A DNA stretch of 64,000 bases from Solirubrobacterales bacterium (lineage in GTDB: Bacteria; Actinomycetota; Thermoleophilia; Solirubrobacterales; JACPNS01). The stretch is taken from contig JASGFX010000004.1 of the NCBI GenBank assembly GCA_047605325.1, forward strand, positions 14,957 to 78,956, read 5' to 3'. Positions 29,494 to 40,398 of the stretch are shown in pieces (the first letter of the stretch is position 1; each line of letters begins with the position of its first letter). The position numbers were made by a program, and so were the translations under genes. The notes below the pieces were generated by a model. The model was given only the letters and a program-made list of their open reading frames with translations. It was not told the DNA's origin and did not search any database.

Positions 29494-30104
29494 CGCCCGC
29501 CCACCACCACCGCGCGCAGTTCGCGCGCGAAGACGTCGGCGCGGATCACCGGGCCGACCTGCGCAGCGGCCAGTCGCAGTGTTGCGAAGCTCCGCCCCTG
29601 GGCACCTTCCTGAGCGGCGAGCACTTCAGCCCCGGCCAGGACCTCGTTCGTCGCCTGGCCGCCGCCGAAGCCGCTGGCGAAAAGGTCCACGCGATCACCG
29701 GCCGCGAGCTGATCCCCAGCGGGCGAGACGAGCACGTCGACTGTGAGCGCACGCTCGCCCGGCCGCAATTTCGCGGCGCGCGACGACGAATCCGTACCGG
29801 CCAGCAGTGCTGCGGTCACGTAGCTCCCGGCGGGAAGATCCGCGATCGCCCTTGTGCCGGCCGCTTCGGCGGGGTCGCCGAGCGCGCCGGCCGGGGCGAA
29901 GCGCCGCGGCAGCAGACGAACTGCAAGCGTCGCGAGCGCGGCGTCGTCGAAGCGATCCCCGGCCGAAACCGCCCGGGTCGTCACGACGACGGCAGTCGCC
30001 GGGCCGTCGCCCCGCGCCGCGCGCCCGGTGTAGCTGAAGGTCAGCCAGCCCGCGAGCGCGGCGCAGATACCGGCCGCCGCGAGCGTGCGTGCCTGTGGAC
30101 TCAT
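29490..30104 (-). CDS. cpaB: Flp pilus assembly protein CpaB (SAF domain)
   Basis: 204 aa with an N-terminal TM anchor followed by a SAF-like region (VVVTTRAVSAGDRFDD). Located directly upstream of cpaF. Confidence 0.65.
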   Translation of the reverse strand: MSPQARTLAAAGICAALAGWLTFSYTGRAARGDGPATAVVVTTRAVSAGDRFDDAALATLAVRLLPRRFAPAGALGDPAEAAGTRAIADLPAGSYVTAALLAGTDSSSRAAKLRPGERALTVDVLVSPAGDQLAAGDRVDLFASGFGGGQATNEVLAGAEVLAAQEGAQGRSFATLRLAAAQVGPVIRADVFARELRAVVVGGR

Positions 30105-30883
30105 TCGCCCACCCGCGAGGGGAGCTGGACGGGCCGGTGAACGGCCGGCACGGTGAAGGCGAGCGTGGCGCCGGAAGCTGAAGGCGCGCTCGCAAGCCGC
30201 CCACCGAGCTGCCGGGCCGACTCGCGCGCGATCGAGAGTCCGTGCCCATGCTCTCCGCGCTGCGGCCTGCGGGTCATCCCCGAGAGTGGCCGCGGCAGAC
30301 CCGGGCCTTCATCTGAGACCTCGATGCGCAGGCTGTCACTGCGCATCCTCGCCGAAAGCGTGATCGTGCCGTTGCCATGGCGGATCGCGTTGGCGAGGAG
30401 GTTCGCCACCACCTCGACGAAGCGCCGCTTGGGTCCGTTGGCCCAGACGCCGTCTTCGGGACCGCTCCATTCGAAGCGCAGCTCGCGACCTTCTCGGCGG
30501 GCGGCCTCGGACCAGATCATCGCCAGCCGCTCGAGCTCGACCCGCGCATCGAGCCGCAGCCGCCGCGCACGGCGCATCGCGCCGGCCTCGGCCAGGCCGT
30601 CGCGTGTAAGTGAGGGCGCGACGAGCCGAGAGTGCAGCAGGACCTCGAAATCAGAGAGGGTCGCGTAGGTCCGCTCGAGTTCGTCGGAGGCCGCGCGGCA
30701 GACGCCTGGCTTGTCGAGATCGAGCACAGGCATCAGGTCGACGGCAAGGCGCGCCGAGGTGATCGCGCCGCGCAGTTCGTGCAGCTCGCGAGCGAGCGCA
30801 CCGCGACGGCGACGGGCCAGGGCGACAAGCGCGAGCAGAGCGATCGATCCGATCAGCCAGAGCGCGGCGATCACCGTGAACAT
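30101..30883 (-). CDS. sensor histidine kinase
   Basis: Trimmed to the ATG at 30883 (MFTVIAALWLIGS..). H-box ELHELRGAIT, N-box LLANAIRHGNG, G1 DEGPGL and G2 GHGLSIA are present. The start shares one base with the response-regulator stop. Confidence 0.85.
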   Translation of the reverse strand: MFTVIAALWLIGSIALLALVALARRRRGALARELHELRGAITSARLAVDLMPVLDLDKPGVCRAASDELERTYATLSDFEVLLHSRLVAPSLTRDGLAEAGAMRRARRLRLDARVELERLAMIWSEAARREGRELRFEWSGPEDGVWANGPKRRFVEVVANLLANAIRHGNGTITLSARMRSDSLRIEVSDEGPGLPRPLSGMTRRPQRGEHGHGLSIARESARQLGGRLASAPSASGATLAFTVPAVHRPVQLPSRVGE

Positions 30884-31614
30884 CAGCGCGCCTCCCCGTG
30901 AGCGAGGAGCCGGTACCCCACTCCCCAGCTGTTGATCACGTACGCGCGACGACCGCCGCTGAGCTTGCGCCGCAGGCGACAGGCGTGCTGGTCGAGCGTG
31001 CGCGATGACCCGACGCGGTAACCCCATATCTCGCGCAGCAGGCGCTCGCGTTCGAACACACGCTCAGGCTCTGCCGCGAGCGCCATCAGCAGTGCGAATT
31101 CCTTGTGCGTGAGGTCGATCTCGCGGCCACGGAGCGAGACATGCCTGCTGTTCGGATCGATCAGCAGCTCGCCGACCGAGAGGACGTCGTCGGTCGGCTC
31201 GATGTTTCGACGACGCAGGACGGCCGCGACACGGCTGCGCAGCTCACCGAATGAATAGGGCTTGGTCACGTAGTCGTCGCAGCCGCACTCGAAGCCTCGG
31301 ATGCGGTCGAACTCCGCGCTGCGCCCGCTGACCATCACGACGGGAAGACCCGACAGCGTGCATTCGCTCGGACGCACCCTGCCGGCGCGCAGGTCGCGCA
31401 GCAGGTCGTAGCCGGCCCCGTCGGGAAGGTTGACGTCGAGCAGGACGAGGTCGAAGCGTCCGTGAGTCAGTGCGCGAGCAGCGGTCGCGAGATCCTCCGC
31501 GCCGCGCGCGCGGTAGCCGTCGAGCTCGAACGCCTCGATCAGTCGCTCGCGGACCGCTTCGTCGTCGTCGACGACGAGCAGTCGCGCCGGAGTGGCAGAG
31601 ACGGTGGTGGTCAT
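30883..31614 (-). CDS. OmpR-family response regulator
   Basis: Trimmed to the ATG at 31614, preceded by AAGAGGAGGG. Receiver domain (LLVVDDDEAV..LVLLDVNLPDG) and winged-helix output (SRTLDQHACRLRRKL..VWGVGYRL) are present. Confidence 0.9.
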   Translation of the reverse strand: MTTTVSATPARLLVVDDDEAVRERLIEAFELDGYRARGAEDLATAARALTHGRFDLVLLDVNLPDGAGYDLLRDLRAGRVRPSECTLSGLPVVMVSGRSAEFDRIRGFECGCDDYVTKPYSFGELRSRVAAVLRRRNIEPTDDVLSVGELLIDPNSRHVSLRGREIDLTHKEFALLMALAAEPERVFERERLLREIWGYRVGSSRTLDQHACRLRRKLSGGRRAYVINSWGVGYRLLAHGEAR

Positions 31615-31973
31615 GAGACCCTCCTCTTTGTGGTTTTGATCAGGCGCGCGCTCGCGCCGGGCACGAGGCCGACTCGGGCGGCTTCGCCAGGTGCGAGTTC
31701 GAGCACTTCGCGAGCACCGAGGTGGACCGCGGCTCGCCACGGGCCAAGCGTGCACGTGCGCAGCACCGAGCCGCCGTGCCCCAGGAAGACGACGTCGATC
31801 GACCGCCTCATCGCGACGGTGTGGACGGAGCTGCAACGGGTGAAGCACAGCGCGCAGCCCGGGGCCGGGAGCCTGCGGCCGATCAGTCCGGTCGCGCGGC
31901 GCAGGCCGGTTGCTCGCTGCACATCGAGGTGCACGCCCTCGCTTGTTCTCCATTGCTCGGCGATAATTCCCAT
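31611..31973 (-). CDS. DUF192-family protein
   Basis: 120 aa. The pattern ..SIDVVFLGHGGSVL..AREVLELAPGEAARVGLVPG.. resembles DUF192 (COG1430). The stop overlaps the response-regulator start (ATGA). Confidence 0.55.
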   Translation of the reverse strand: MGIIAEQWRTSEGVHLDVQRATGLRRATGLIGRRLPAPGCALCFTRCSSVHTVAMRRSIDVVFLGHGGSVLRTCTLGPWRAAVHLGAREVLELAPGEAARVGLVPGASARLIKTTKRRVS

Positions 31974-32143
31974 CAGTCCTTTAAGTGATCCGGGCCGCCG
32001 CGCTTACTCCCCCAAACGCGGTATTTGCTGAAGAAAGCCAAATCACAGCGCGCAAGGTCGCTTGCACCGCTCGCGTCGAAGCAGGAATCGGCCGTAACCT
32101 CCCGACGCAGGGATGCAAACCGCTCCCGCCGACTACTGCTCAC

Positions 32144-32608
32144 ATGGATCCCTACCGCCGACAGAACTACGACTCGGGCTCGGACTACGTCCTCGAGTAC
32201 GGAGAGCTCCGCTTCACGTTCAACGAACGTGACTTCTGCGAGCGCGTCGAGCAGGCGGCCATGAAACTCGGGTTCATCGAGCGCCGACTCGCCTTCGAAG
32301 AATCGGAAGACCTCGTCAACCTCGTCGTCAACGGTGAAGTCGACGATGCGGTCTCGGCGCTCGGTCATCACATCAACGAGTGCTGGTGCGAGCTCTCGGG
32401 CAACGACGAGGGGTCACTGGTGCACTGGCTGCGCCGCCTCGTCTTCCGCGGCGCATGGCTCGATCAGCGCGTGATCGAGGGTGAACTCGACATCGTCTAT
32501 GACGAAGAACACGCCGAGTTCCTCTACGCCCAGCCCGATCGCGGTTACGAACCGATCATCCTCGCGACCGGCCCCTCGTGGCAGCAGGTCGCGTACCACA
32601 CTCATTGA
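32144..32608 (+). CDS. hypothetical acidic protein
   Basis: Strong GC3 bias in this frame, against the antisense ORF 31973-32371. Start taken at the ATG at 32144. I recognise no family. Confidence 0.55.
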   Translation: MDPYRRQNYDSGSDYVLEYGELRFTFNERDFCERVEQAAMKLGFIERRLAFEESEDLVNLVVNGEVDDAVSALGHHINECWCELSGNDEGSLVHWLRRLVFRGAWLDQRVIEGELDIVYDEEHAEFLYAQPDRGYEPIILATGPSWQQVAYHTH

Positions 32609-32612
32609 ATTC

Positions 32613-32637
32613 GTCAAACGGGCTTGCCCCGTTTGAC
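32613..32637. terminator. hairpin between convergent genes
   Basis: GTCAAACGGG-cttgc-CCCGTTTGAC, a 10-bp perfect stem 5 nt after the stop at 32608. A second hairpin, GCGCACC-aaa-GGTGCGC, lies near 32750 just downstream of the Rho-like gene. Confidence 0.5.
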
Positions 32638-32776
32638 GTCCCGCTTGGCTGAGGGGTGCGCTCGGGAGACCCCCGCGCACCTTGGACGGGCAGCTGGGTG
32701 GAGTGAGCCTGTAGTGAACGCTGCCGGCCGCAACGCGCCCGATCTCAGCTGCGCACCAAAGGTGCGCGGTCGGCGG

Positions 32777-34060
32777 TCAGTTGCCGCTCCAGCTGGCCTT
32801 CTTGTCGAGCTTGAGCTTGCGGCCACCGGCCACCACGCCGATCGCGCTGGCCTGAGCCTCGAGGGGCGAACCCGCGCCGGCCGAAGCGGCGATCGTGAGG
32901 GCGCCGCCCTGGGCGAGGTTGCGGGCGCTGACGAAGATCTCATTGGCCTTTTCGGCCGGAAGCAGATCGAGTCCGTCGACCAGCACCGCAGTGTCGCGGC
33001 CGGTCTCGGCAAGGCGACGGTCACGGTCGAGTGCGAGCTCAAGTGCGGGCAGCACGTCTTCGGGCGCCTTGGTGGCGTCGCCAGCGATGACTTCGACCCC
33101 ACTCATCGCTTCGGACTGCTCCGGACGCGCGGTCACGATCACCAGCGTCGTCACGACGCCGTCGGACGCCAGCTCACCGGCGAGCTTCTTGAGCATCTCC
33201 GAGGCGGCGGCGCGGGTCGGGCCGGTCACGACAAGGCGCGATCCCGCGCCGATCGGGGCGTGCTTGAAGGTCTTCTTTGCGTAGCGACCGGCAATTGCGA
33301 CAGCGTCGCGCTTCTCGAACGGCTGCGCCGGCTGCTTGCGAGCCTCTTGATGCTGGCCGTTGACCGAGTCGATCGAGCCGACGACGAAGTCTGTGCGACC
33401 GCGGCGAGCCTTCTTGACCTGCGCGTTGATCAGGTCTCCACGCGTGAGATTCCAACGGCGAACTTCGCCGCGCGGCACGTCGGCGTCGCCGCGAACTCGG
33501 CGAGTCAGATCTGTTCGCAGGCGCCCGCCTCCGCCCGAGCCCGGCTCGAAAACACCGGCCAGTGGCGTGGTCGGCTCGTCGCGACGCTCCTTCGGGGCCT
33601 TCTCGCTCTTTTCAGAGCCTGCCGCTGCTGCGGCGCCGGCCTCGGCCTTGGCCTGCTGCTGCCGGCCACCGCGTCCACGCGGGGTGCGTCCTGAAGTCTG
33701 CTTCTCGCCTGCGGCGGATCCTCCGCGGCGACCGCGACCCCCGCGCTGGCCGCGCGAACCACCGCGGGCACGCTCGGCGGCTGCCTCCTGGCGTGCGGCC
33801 TCGCGTTCTGCTTCTTCGGCCTCTTCCTTGTCGGCGAGCGCCTTCTCACGCTCTGCCCTGATGCGGCCGAGCTCGGTCGCCTTGGCCTCGACGGCCGGGC
33901 GGATCTCGTCGCCGATCGCGCCGCGCGATTCGAGGATCGCGATCGTGAGGTCGGGCTTCTTGAGCAGGCGGTAGCCCTCGATGTCGAGCTCGCCCGCGAT
34001 CGCGTGCAGATCGGAGAGCGGACTCTCGAGGAGGTTGTCGATGTCGAGTACCGGAGTCAT
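32777..34060 (-). CDS. Rho-like protein with a degenerate, truncated ATPase domain
   Basis: 427 aa. It has a Rho_N-like helix (LSDLHAIAGELDIEGYRLLKKPDLTIAIL) followed by an R/G/E-rich insertion. An OB-fold RNA-binding region aligns to E. coli Rho (GVFEP..GGRLRTD..VPRGEVRRWNLTRGDLINAQV). The RecA-like region shows PIGAGSRLVVTGPTRAAAS in place of PIGRGQRGLIVAPPKAGKT. Confidence 0.7.
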   Translation of the reverse strand: MTPVLDIDNLLESPLSDLHAIAGELDIEGYRLLKKPDLTIAILESRGAIGDEIRPAVEAKATELGRIRAEREKALADKEEAEEAEREAARQEAAAERARGGSRGQRGGRGRRGGSAAGEKQTSGRTPRGRGGRQQQAKAEAGAAAAAGSEKSEKAPKERRDEPTTPLAGVFEPGSGGGGRLRTDLTRRVRGDADVPRGEVRRWNLTRGDLINAQVKKARRGRTDFVVGSIDSVNGQHQEARKQPAQPFEKRDAVAIAGRYAKKTFKHAPIGAGSRLVVTGPTRAAASEMLKKLAGELASDGVVTTLVIVTARPEQSEAMSGVEVIAGDATKAPEDVLPALELALDRDRRLAETGRDTAVLVDGLDLLPAEKANEIFVSARNLAQGGALTIAASAGAGSPLEAQASAIGVVAGGRKLKLDKKASWSGN

Positions 34061-34097
34061 GTTCGGGCGGCATCCTAATCGACACGGCCGCGGCCGC

Positions 34098-35006
34098 TCA
34101 CGGGGCGGCGACCCGTCGCTTCTCGAGATCGAGCGTCAGATCCTCTTCAACACTCAAGTCGCCGGTGAGCGCGGCGCGGACGACGAGGAAATCCGCTGCC
34201 GCCGCGACATCGTGGATGCGCGCGATCGCGACTCCCGCCTCCACACCGGCTTCGAGCGCTGCCAGTGTGCCGGCTTCGCGCTCGCGTGGCCCCCGATCGG
34301 TCAGCGCCCCGATGAAGTCCTTGCGGCCCGCGGCGAGCAGGATCGGACGGCCGAGCTCGCGAAAACGCGGGACCGCCCGCAGCACCTCGATCGTCTGGGC
34401 CGGCGTCTTGGCGAAGTCGGGACCCGGGTCGAGGATGATCCGCTCACGCGGAACCCCCTGCGCCTCGGCGCGCTCAATCGCGTCAGCGAGGAAGTCATGC
34501 ACGTCGGTCACGACGTCGTCGTAGTGGGGAAAGAGCTTCTGCTTGGGCGCCGCGCGGGTGTGCATCAGCACGAGCGCGGCGTCGCCCTCGGCGGCAGCAG
34601 CGGCGAGATCGTCGTCGGCCAGACCTGAGACGTCATTGACGATCCTCGCCCCGGCGGCGATCGCCGCTCGCGCAACCGCAGGCTTGTAGGTGTCGACGCT
34701 CACGACCGCGCCCGGCAGCGCTGCCACGGCCTCGATCACCGGCACGACGCGAGAGATCTCCTCGCCGGCGTCGACCGCCGGCTTGTTCGTGATCCCAGAC
34801 TCGCCGCCGATGTCGATGATGTCGGCGCCCTCGGCGATCAGCTCCCGCGCGAGCGCGAGACGCTCTTCGATCGGTTTCGCGCCGGGTGCGTCCGAGAAGG
34901 AATCGGGCGTAGCGTTGACAACGCCCATCAGATACGGCCGCCAGCGCGGGCGTCTTGCCAGCCCCAGGTGCTCACGCAATGCCGCGTCGATCAGATCCCC
35001 GCTCAT
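34098..35006 (-). CDS. folP: dihydropteroate synthase
   Basis: Trimmed to the ATG at 35006. Contains GVVNATPDSFSD and DIGGEST-like (DIGGESG) motifs. Confidence 0.9.
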   Translation of the reverse strand: MSGDLIDAALREHLGLARRPRWRPYLMGVVNATPDSFSDAPGAKPIEERLALARELIAEGADIIDIGGESGITNKPAVDAGEEISRVVPVIEAVAALPGAVVSVDTYKPAVARAAIAAGARIVNDVSGLADDDLAAAAAEGDAALVLMHTRAAPKQKLFPHYDDVVTDVHDFLADAIERAEAQGVPRERIILDPGPDFAKTPAQTIEVLRAVPRFRELGRPILLAAGRKDFIGALTDRGPREREAGTLAALEAGVEAGVAIARIHDVAAAADFLVVRAALTGDLSVEEDLTLDLEKRRVAAP

Positions 35007-35067
35007 CGCCCGCACTCTACGCGAGCACCCCGGCGCCCACATCCGCTCGATCTGTGAAGCTGCCCGC

Positions 35068-35670
35068 GTGAACAGCGAACCGAAGTTCGAAGCCGTGCTG
35101 ATGCGCCATGGACAGACCGAGTGGAGCGCAAGCGGCCGCCACACCGGCAACACCGACATCCCGCTGACTCCCGAAGGAGAGGTCGAAGCCGCCGCGATGA
35201 CGCCGCACATCTCCGGCCACCGCTACGAGCTGGTGCTGACCAGCCCGCTCGAGCGCGCGCGCAAGACCTGCGAGCTGGTCGGCCTCGGCGAGCGAGCGCA
35301 GATCCGCGAGGATCTGCGTGAGTGGGACTACGGCGACTACGAGGGATTGACCAGCCCACAGATCCATGAGCTCGATCCGAACTGGAATCTCTGGCGCGAC
35401 GGATGCCCCGGCGGCGACTCGCCGGACGACGTCTCCGCGCGCTGCGACCGGGTGATCACCGAGCTGCTCGCGCAGGCCTCAGGAGGGGACGGCGACGCAA
35501 TCGTCTTCGCGCACGGCCACATTCTGCGCTCGCTCGGCGCGCGCTGGTGCGGACTACCGGTGGCCGCGGGCGCCCATCTGCTGCTCTCGACCGCCGCGGC
35601 CAGTTCACTCAGCTTCGAACATCAGATACCGGCGATCAAGTTTTGGAACCGCACCTCGCAGGATCGCTGA
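35068..35670 (+). CDS. histidine phosphatase family protein (phosphoglycerate-mutase-like)
   Basis: GTG start at 35068. RHG motif (LMRHGQTEW) and downstream SPLERARKT are present. Confidence 0.8.
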   Translation: MNSEPKFEAVLMRHGQTEWSASGRHTGNTDIPLTPEGEVEAAAMTPHISGHRYELVLTSPLERARKTCELVGLGERAQIREDLREWDYGDYEGLTSPQIHELDPNWNLWRDGCPGGDSPDDVSARCDRVITELLAQASGGDGDAIVFAHGHILRSLGARWCGLPVAAGAHLLLSTAAASSLSFEHQIPAIKFWNRTSQDR

Positions 35671-35685
35671 CCGCAGGCTCGACTC

Positions 35686-40398
<4,713 letters not shown>

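Follow-up and report, generated by a model that had tools for sequence, protein, structure and literature searches.

A Rho-derived gene with a degenerate ATPase motor at a conserved chromosomal slot of Solirubrobacterales

What is left of a Rho protein once its motor has decayed, and why would a lineage keep it? This question is raised by a Rho-derived gene lying on the minus strand (32777..34060, 427 aa) of a 64-kb stretch of contig JASGFX010000004.1, hereafter the window, which belongs to a metagenome-assembled genome (MAG) of a Solirubrobacterales bacterium. Rho is essential in several actinobacteria, and its ATPase and RNA-threading motifs are regarded as nearly universally conserved. We favour, with a probability of about 0.7, the reading that the window gene is the sole Rho-family gene of its genome and the most derived form found at a conserved slot, and that its protein is ATP-independent and still functional through some motor-independent activity. 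The protein is identical to NCBI MFT4048671.1, which bears the name 'Rho termination factor N-terminal domain-containing protein [Solirubrobacterales bacterium]'.

Motor and RNA-site residues of the window protein

The resemblance of this open reading frame (ORF) to Rho, already noticed in a first-pass annotation, is borne out by Pfam, by alignment with PDB sequences and by Foldseek. Pfam recognizes Rho_N (PF07498) at residues 12–45 (33926..34027, on the minus strand like all parts of the gene given below), with 31 bits for a cut-off of 24.9, and Rho_RNA_bind (PF07497) at residues 168–238, with 29.3 bits for a cut-off of 27; it finds no ATP-synt_ab domain (PF00006) in the 427-aa protein. The two Rho equivalog models score the protein far below their cut-offs: 71.4 bits against 315 for NF006886 and 69.5 bits against 509 for TIGR00767. 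PDB Rho chains align with residues 169–376 (E 1e-15 to 1e-12). The AlphaFold2 (AF2) model, built from 21 clade sequences, has a mean predicted local distance difference test score (pLDDT) of 79.6; searched against the PDB with Foldseek, it matches Rho structures exclusively (E about 1e-17, about 280 columns, 3–4 Å).

The order of the domains is that of an actinobacterial Rho. After Rho_N, modelled with a pLDDT of about 90, comes an insert of about 115 aa, close to the 110 first estimated for an Arg/Gly-rich insertion: a predicted long charged helix at residues 50–99 (33764..33913, pLDDT about 90) opens it, and an Arg/Gly-rich stretch at residues 100–164 (33569..33763; net charge +9, 15 Gly), disordered according to AF2, completes it. 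The OB-fold domain, homologous to Rho_RNA_bind (residues 165–240, 33341..33568, net charge +5), is supported by Pfam, alignment and AF2, and the degenerate RecA-like domain (residues 241–412, 32825..33340) by the PDB and clade alignments, AF2 and Foldseek. AF2 is confident for Rho_N, the helix, the OB domain and the RecA-like core, and predicts disorder for the RG-rich stretch and the final 15 residues. The latter form a short basic tail, GGRKLKLDKKASWSGN (residues 413–427, 32780..32824), conserved in the clade and standing in place of the last 66 or so residues of Rho.

The motifs were compared in an alignment of 83 full-length members of the window's clade (clade C) with canonical Rho proteins and E. 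coli Rho, whose numbering is used here and whose sequence is identical to PDB 1pv4_A. In this alignment, as in that with the PDB chains, TGPTRAAAS (residues 279–287, 33200..33226) stands opposite the P-loop APPKAGKT. G183 and K184 are both Ala in 80 of the 83 members, Lys181 is Arg in the window protein, and the residue states of this P-loop remnant hold in 80 to 83 of the 83. The Walker A signature GxxxxGK[ST] is absent from the protein. IVTARPEQ (residues 308–315) replaces LIDERPEE; within it TARPEQ (residues 310–315, 33116..33133) carries Thr for D210 and Ala for the catalytic E211, while the Arg valve R212 is kept. Across the clade the positions of D210 and E211 hold variable small residues, the catalytic one being Ala, Pro or Ser. 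The Q-loop (E. coli 268–289) is deleted in 83/83; the deletion junction is D365, directly after the Walker B remnant AVLVDGL (32966..32989 with the junction), whose Asp265 is retained as D362, invariant in 83/83. The R-loop Lys326 is Pro here, and Pro or Ala in the clade. Finally the protein stops near E. coli residue 353, so that about 66 residues, among them the Arg finger R366 and the C-terminal helices, are missing. The first-pass annotation had read these changes correctly, namely the replaced P-loop, TARPEQ for DERPEE, the shortened Q/R-loop region and an end about 60 residues early, as well as their consequence: the lost motor motifs support its prediction of an ATPase-dead protein.

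It had also described the RNA-binding module as retained, with a primary site that can be aligned residue by residue with that of E. coli. This holds for the OB fold and for R66 and D78, which are retained, but the residues of the pyrimidine pockets are replaced in 80–83 of the 83 members: F62G (83), F64R (80), Y80D (80), E108R (81), R109T (80) and Y110D (80), which correspond in the window protein to G178, R180, D194, R222, T223 and D224. The OB domain has 3 aromatic residues where that of E. coli has 8, and a net charge of +5 versus −2. The module survives as a fold and not as the canonical site. The earlier claim of retained RNA binding is not supported, the aromatic primary-site residues being gone; it would need the Arg-rich surface and the RGG-type region. 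Judging from the alignment, every element for ATP binding, inter-subunit hydrolysis and RNA threading has gone, together with the canonical pyrimidine pockets, and the protein would be unable to bind or hydrolyse ATP or to thread RNA.

Could a sequencing or assembly frameshift have produced the divergent segment, a corrected sequence restoring GKT, as had been envisaged? Between 32701 and 34200 all reading frames of the gene's strand are free of GK[ST], the ORF is uninterrupted with a normal codon-position GC, and the same motifs recur in independent assemblies from NCBI, JGI, ENA and Logan. We rejected this explanation, whose probability is negligible.

Four grades of decay at one locus

Relatives of the window gene occur at 515 loci in the GTDB species genomes. 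Among the best 79 of these 515, each from a separate assembly and each with one Rho-family match per assembly, 6 belong to the window's clade; the remaining 73 show 28–35% identity and have the gene order given below. Motif tables of the proteins of these loci, and of a further family reached via the intermediate match P0096, define four grades. Grade D keeps an intact primary RNA site, DERPEE and the C-terminal tail; it has K184R in 118/118 proteins, a Q-loop cut from 28 to 11 residues and Ser, Thr or Ala at R366. Grade A has an intact primary RNA site and an intact GK[ST], but E211 is Val or Ala, the Q-loop is deleted, R366 is lost and about 37 residues remain of the C-tail. In grade B the primary RNA site is again intact; the P-loop reads GAGAT, with no Lys, E211 and R366 are lost, the Q-loop is deleted and the C-tail is 12–18 residues long. 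Grade C, the window's clade, has lost the primary RNA site, reads RAAAS in the P-loop, has neither E211 nor R366 nor a Q-loop, and ends with a C-tail of about 14 residues. A shortened or deleted Q-loop and the loss of the R-loop Lys and of the Arg finger are thus common to all grades, and the window protein fits this pattern; in grade C the entire P-loop signature has gone as well, together with the aromatic primary RNA site, its short C-tail being shared with grade B. The scores with NF006886 (cut-off 315) descend accordingly, from 474 for the nearest canonical protein to 271 (D), 190 (A), 189 (B) and 71 (C).

The degenerate clade, whose conservation was to be checked by a phylogeny, is a conserved one. 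In a neighbour-joining (NJ) distance tree (365 columns, 100 bootstraps), A+B+C+D, A+B+C and C are each recovered in 100/100 replicates, C on a long stem and D basal, and the whole group is nested among the canonical Rho proteins of actinobacteria, beside a Nitriliruptoria-type family. Grades D, A, B and C are therefore one clade inside actinobacterial Rho, of which clade C is the most derived part. Between C and the A/B lineages the flanking genes are 55–65% identical and the Rho-like gene only 30–32%, which indicates that evolution sped up on the C stem.

The locus itself is shared. In grades A, B and C we found the order glpD–folP–X–convergent 155-aa ORF–response regulator/histidine kinase (RR/HK)–Tad, X being the Rho-like gene, and the deepest branch of clade C shows the same gene context. 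The wider context of grade D (DUF4430–CbiQ–ABC ... glpD, Rho, convergent ORF, RR/HK, Tad) is again the order seen in the window. The slot includes an energy-coupling factor (ECF) transporter, which precedes glpD in this order, and it is conserved across Solirubrobacterales/Thermoleophilia. The window gene occupies it and is the positional orthologue of the single Rho-derived gene present across Solirubrobacterales.

Other degenerate forms of Rho are found in metagenomes (P0268, P0280, P0355, P0361, P0365, P0373, P0376 and P0383). Their Walker A reads G-A-T without Lys, the catalytic Glu is replaced and a charged segment rich in Arg, Asp and Glu occupies the place of the Q-loop, the C-tail and often the Arg finger being kept. 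From these forms it follows that the decay of the Rho motor may have happened more than once.

Selection, the probable lack of a canonical Rho and a possible role

Is the gene still in use? Among the matches listed, the homology search gave about 90 further cluster representatives at 39–89% identity, all without PF00006. In the clade 81 positions are invariant, and the C-tail has newly acquired a conserved motif, GGRKLKLDKKxSW. Mean conservation is highest in Rho_N (0.89), followed by the C-tail (0.83), the OB domain (0.81) and the RecA-like core (0.76). The ratio of non-synonymous to synonymous substitution rates (dN/dS; Nei-Gojobori, five orthologues) is 0.17–0.31 for the whole gene, 0.06–0.16 for the OB domain and 0.11–0.34 for the RecA-like part, values that are approximate since dS is about 1 and near saturation. 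The gene is under purifying selection. This conservation of the homologues, together with a dN/dS well below 1, indicates that it is neither a sequencing artefact nor a pseudogene. A functionless relic in decay would agree with the stepwise loss of canonical Rho activities across the lineage, but it would hardly leave an intact ORF in some 90 clusters down to 39% identity, every folded domain with a dN/dS well below 1, and a tail motif that is new; we give this explanation next to no credence.

The Arg/Gly-rich disordered region has the weakest conservation and the highest dN/dS. In one grade-B protein (locus L007, from a Thermoleophilaceae MAG) an acidic tandem TSEG repeat of about 11 copies is found in place of the RG-rich insertion, which suggests that this region is free in composition even within the lineage. 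At four loci of long-read MAGs (L029, L038, L050 and L071) the Rho-like gene lacks an in-frame N-terminal domain; these missing N-termini are probably assembly frameshift errors and not true truncations.

The constraint on the former nucleotide site also bears on another explanation, that the remnant pocket (R283, R312, E314 and D362, all conserved) binds a nucleotide or a phosphorylated ligand and makes the protein a ligand-controlled switch. The clade shows little or no variation at the Walker B Asp, at the Arg valve, in the RPE motif or at K181R; dN/dS is about 0.1 from the P-loop to Walker B when the closest orthologues are compared, and sister grade A has a full GK[ST]. On the other hand Gly183 and Lys184 are both Ala in nearly all members, the Arg finger is absent and the conserved residues may be structural only, so that we consider such a switch improbable.

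The first-pass annotation took the gene for a paralogue: an additional, ATPase-dead Rho that would regulate a canonical one, serve as its decoy or join it in mixed hexamers. A tblastn search of the window for a canonical rho returned just the Rho-like ORF itself, and none of the canonical Rho proteins among the matches listed (homology and representative searches, best 120–150 each) is labelled Solirubrobacterales. The canonical matches closest to the window protein come from other actinobacteria, where they have the classic neighbourhood hom-thrC-thrB-rho-rpmE-prfA-atp. In the Thermoleophilia DNA covered by the analysis the thrB-rho-rpmE-prfA context is absent, an uninformative result. For grade D, the closest relative that is fully canonical, among the matches listed, is P0269, from a family labelled Egicoccus/Nitriliruptor (Nitriliruptoria). 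Two complete genomes of the order, those of Conexibacter woesei and Baekduia soli, were described as having no functional Rho and 'Rho-like' sequences instead, the absences having been checked by six-frame translation and tblastn (Moreira et al. 2024, NAR 52:8979, PMC11347177). Grade A, with the gene order unchanged, is present in a Baekduia sp. (locus L079) and in a Capillimicrobium sp. (locus L058), and C. woesei and B. soli probably carry grade A too.

A paralogue would be compatible with the fact that the visible sequence is 64 kb of a MAG, with the two rho genes reported in 116 bacterial genomes (PMC11347177) and with the preservation of the RecA-like fold that forms the ring interface. 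However, the slot that it occupies is orthologous to that of the order's single Rho-derived gene, and the gene is part of a single clade with one match per assembly in the loci described above; functional Rho was found absent from the two complete genomes; and the Arg finger and C-terminal helices, which would complete the site of a neighbouring subunit, have gone. It is therefore very unlikely that the window gene works as a paralogue beside a canonical Rho. We infer that the Rho-like gene is the sole Rho homologue in the cultured members of the order, and it would be so by extension in the source MAG.

How could such a protein have arisen, and what might it do? In the scenario that we favour for this sole Rho-family gene, the translocation loops and the Arg finger would have been lost first, at the base of the order. 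The nucleotide site would then have become dispensable and its decay would have differed between sub-lineages: K184R in D, loss of E211 in A, loss of both Lys and Glu in B and C. Clade C would additionally have shed the P-loop signature and the primary RNA site. The strongest constraint in this clade falls on Rho_N, on an OB surface rich in Arg, on the RecA-like structural core and on the new basic C-terminal motif; the RGG-type disordered region is retained, its sequence being weakly conserved. Most likely the protein would use this OB surface and the RGG-type region to bind nucleic acids, and/or contact the transcription machinery through Rho_N and the basic C-tail. This pattern of constraint leads us to favour an ATP-independent factor, associated with RNA or with RNA polymerase, as the probable role, instead of a helicase terminator.

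Several points weigh against this reading. The search of the source genome covered the 64-kb window, and a second, canonical rho, for example a horizontally acquired one, is possible. The published absence spans just two species, which are probably of grade A (PMC11347177). The tree is a simple NJ distance tree, in which long-branch effects could shift the placement of C (A+C 78/100), and the near saturation of dS was mentioned above. As for the mechanism, it is drawn from composition and conservation, so that binding to RNA or RNA polymerase, a ring and the cellular role are hypothetical.

A broader proposal is that in the whole order the Rho ring motor has become an ATP-independent protein under strong selection, which shed first the translocation loops, then the catalytic site and lastly, in clade C, the classic RNA pockets, the OB domain of grade C having gained a surface for a new ligand. 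We put it forward tentatively, at less than even odds. If true, Rho has a motor-independent activity of enough value to persist after termination by translocation was given up; candidates would be an allosteric effect on RNA polymerase, or the scaffolding of RNA or condensates through Rho_N and the RG-rich region.

Whatever the activity, four natural grades at one locus offer a dissection series for the function of Rho without its motor, and this series is relevant to the dispute over whether termination is driven by translocation or allosteric. One may also ask how the high-GC Solirubrobacterales of soil end their transcripts and keep R-loops and antisense RNA in check. More practically, these lineages will be misjudged by genome annotation, in which IMG labels the Rho-like proteins 'transcription termination factor Rho', and by marker-gene sets containing rho.

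Neighbouring genes and known Rho proteins

Upstream of the Rho-like gene, 37 nt away and on the same minus strand, lies folP (dihydropteroate synthase, 34098..35006), whose start is uncertain (34931–35210). The folP ORF, 34098..35210 on the minus strand, starts with some 90 additional aa ahead of the Pterin_bind domain, and it overlaps the raw ORF of a divergent His_Phos_1 gene (34690..35670, plus strand); the true starts are probably near 34931–35006 for folP and 35095 for the phosphatase. A promoter/terminator scan found no promoter-like or terminator-like site in the 37-nt gap; the terminator-like matches that it gave are of weak consensus and lie inside coding sequence. An Rfam scan of 30000–38000 gave no match.

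That the two genes are co-transcribed, as first suggested, is possible in the window in view of this gap. The adjacency is less general: folP directly adjoins the Rho-like gene in 40/42 grade-A loci, but in just 6/19 grade-B and 2/6 clade-C loci, which makes a functional link between the two genes unlikely. We considered a functional folP/Rho-like operon and rejected it, since grades B and C do not conserve the adjacency. A block of 3.5–4 kb, containing metallophosphatase, CpgS_N, ATP-cone protein and transaldolase-like genes, separates folP from the Rho-like gene in many genomes of these two grades (L003–L007, L086); the window has no such block.

On the other side, convergent to the Rho-like gene, lies the 155-aa ORF (32141..32608, plus strand), a neighbour in all four grades. 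Its sequence does not vary at about half of the positions across Solirubrobacterales, and it has no match in Pfam, NCBIfam or PDB sequences. The raw ORF (31985..32608) overstates its length.

How does the window protein compare with what is known? With canonical Rho (E. coli P0AG30; M. tuberculosis Rho, PDB 7oqh) it shares the order Rho_N, insertion, OB domain, RecA-like domain, as well as the fold, the RG-rich insertion (for actinobacterial Rho), the Walker B Asp, the Arg valve, R66 and D78. What it lacks is the GK[ST] of the P-loop, the catalytic Glu, the Q-loop, the R-loop Lys, the Arg finger and the last 66 or so residues; the locus also differs, thrB-rho-rpmE-prfA for canonical Rho versus glpD/folP here. 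In functional Rho proteins large deletions of the ATPase domain were not seen (PMC11347177).

The short-form Rho paralogue, NF041509, matches the window protein weakly (58.6 bits for a cut-off of 628), and the latter is not a member of it. Proteins of this short-form family are devoid of the N-terminal domain, possess the ATPase domain and were counted as functional (PMC11347177). The window protein is the opposite: its N-terminus is kept, its motor is lost, and it is probably the sole copy.

The nearest known relatives are the 'Rho-like' proteins of Baekduia and Conexibacter (PMC11347177), which belong, like the window protein, to the same order, gene family and locus, and which are likewise detected solely by the Rho_N and Rho_RNA_bind models. 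Grade A, as represented by the Baekduia sp. and Capillimicrobium sp. loci, keeps the aromatic primary RNA site and GK[ST]; clade C, at 28–35% identity, has lost both. The existence of these 'Rho-like' proteins and the lack of a functional Rho in two Solirubrobacterales are already on record, as one or two main-text sentences of PMC11347177; that main text gives no account of a retained, gutted RecA-like domain or of a graded series. Relative to the main-text literature, the new elements are thus the gutted RecA-like domain, the series of four grades at one locus in hundreds of species, and, in clade C, the additional loss of the P-loop together with the primary RNA site.

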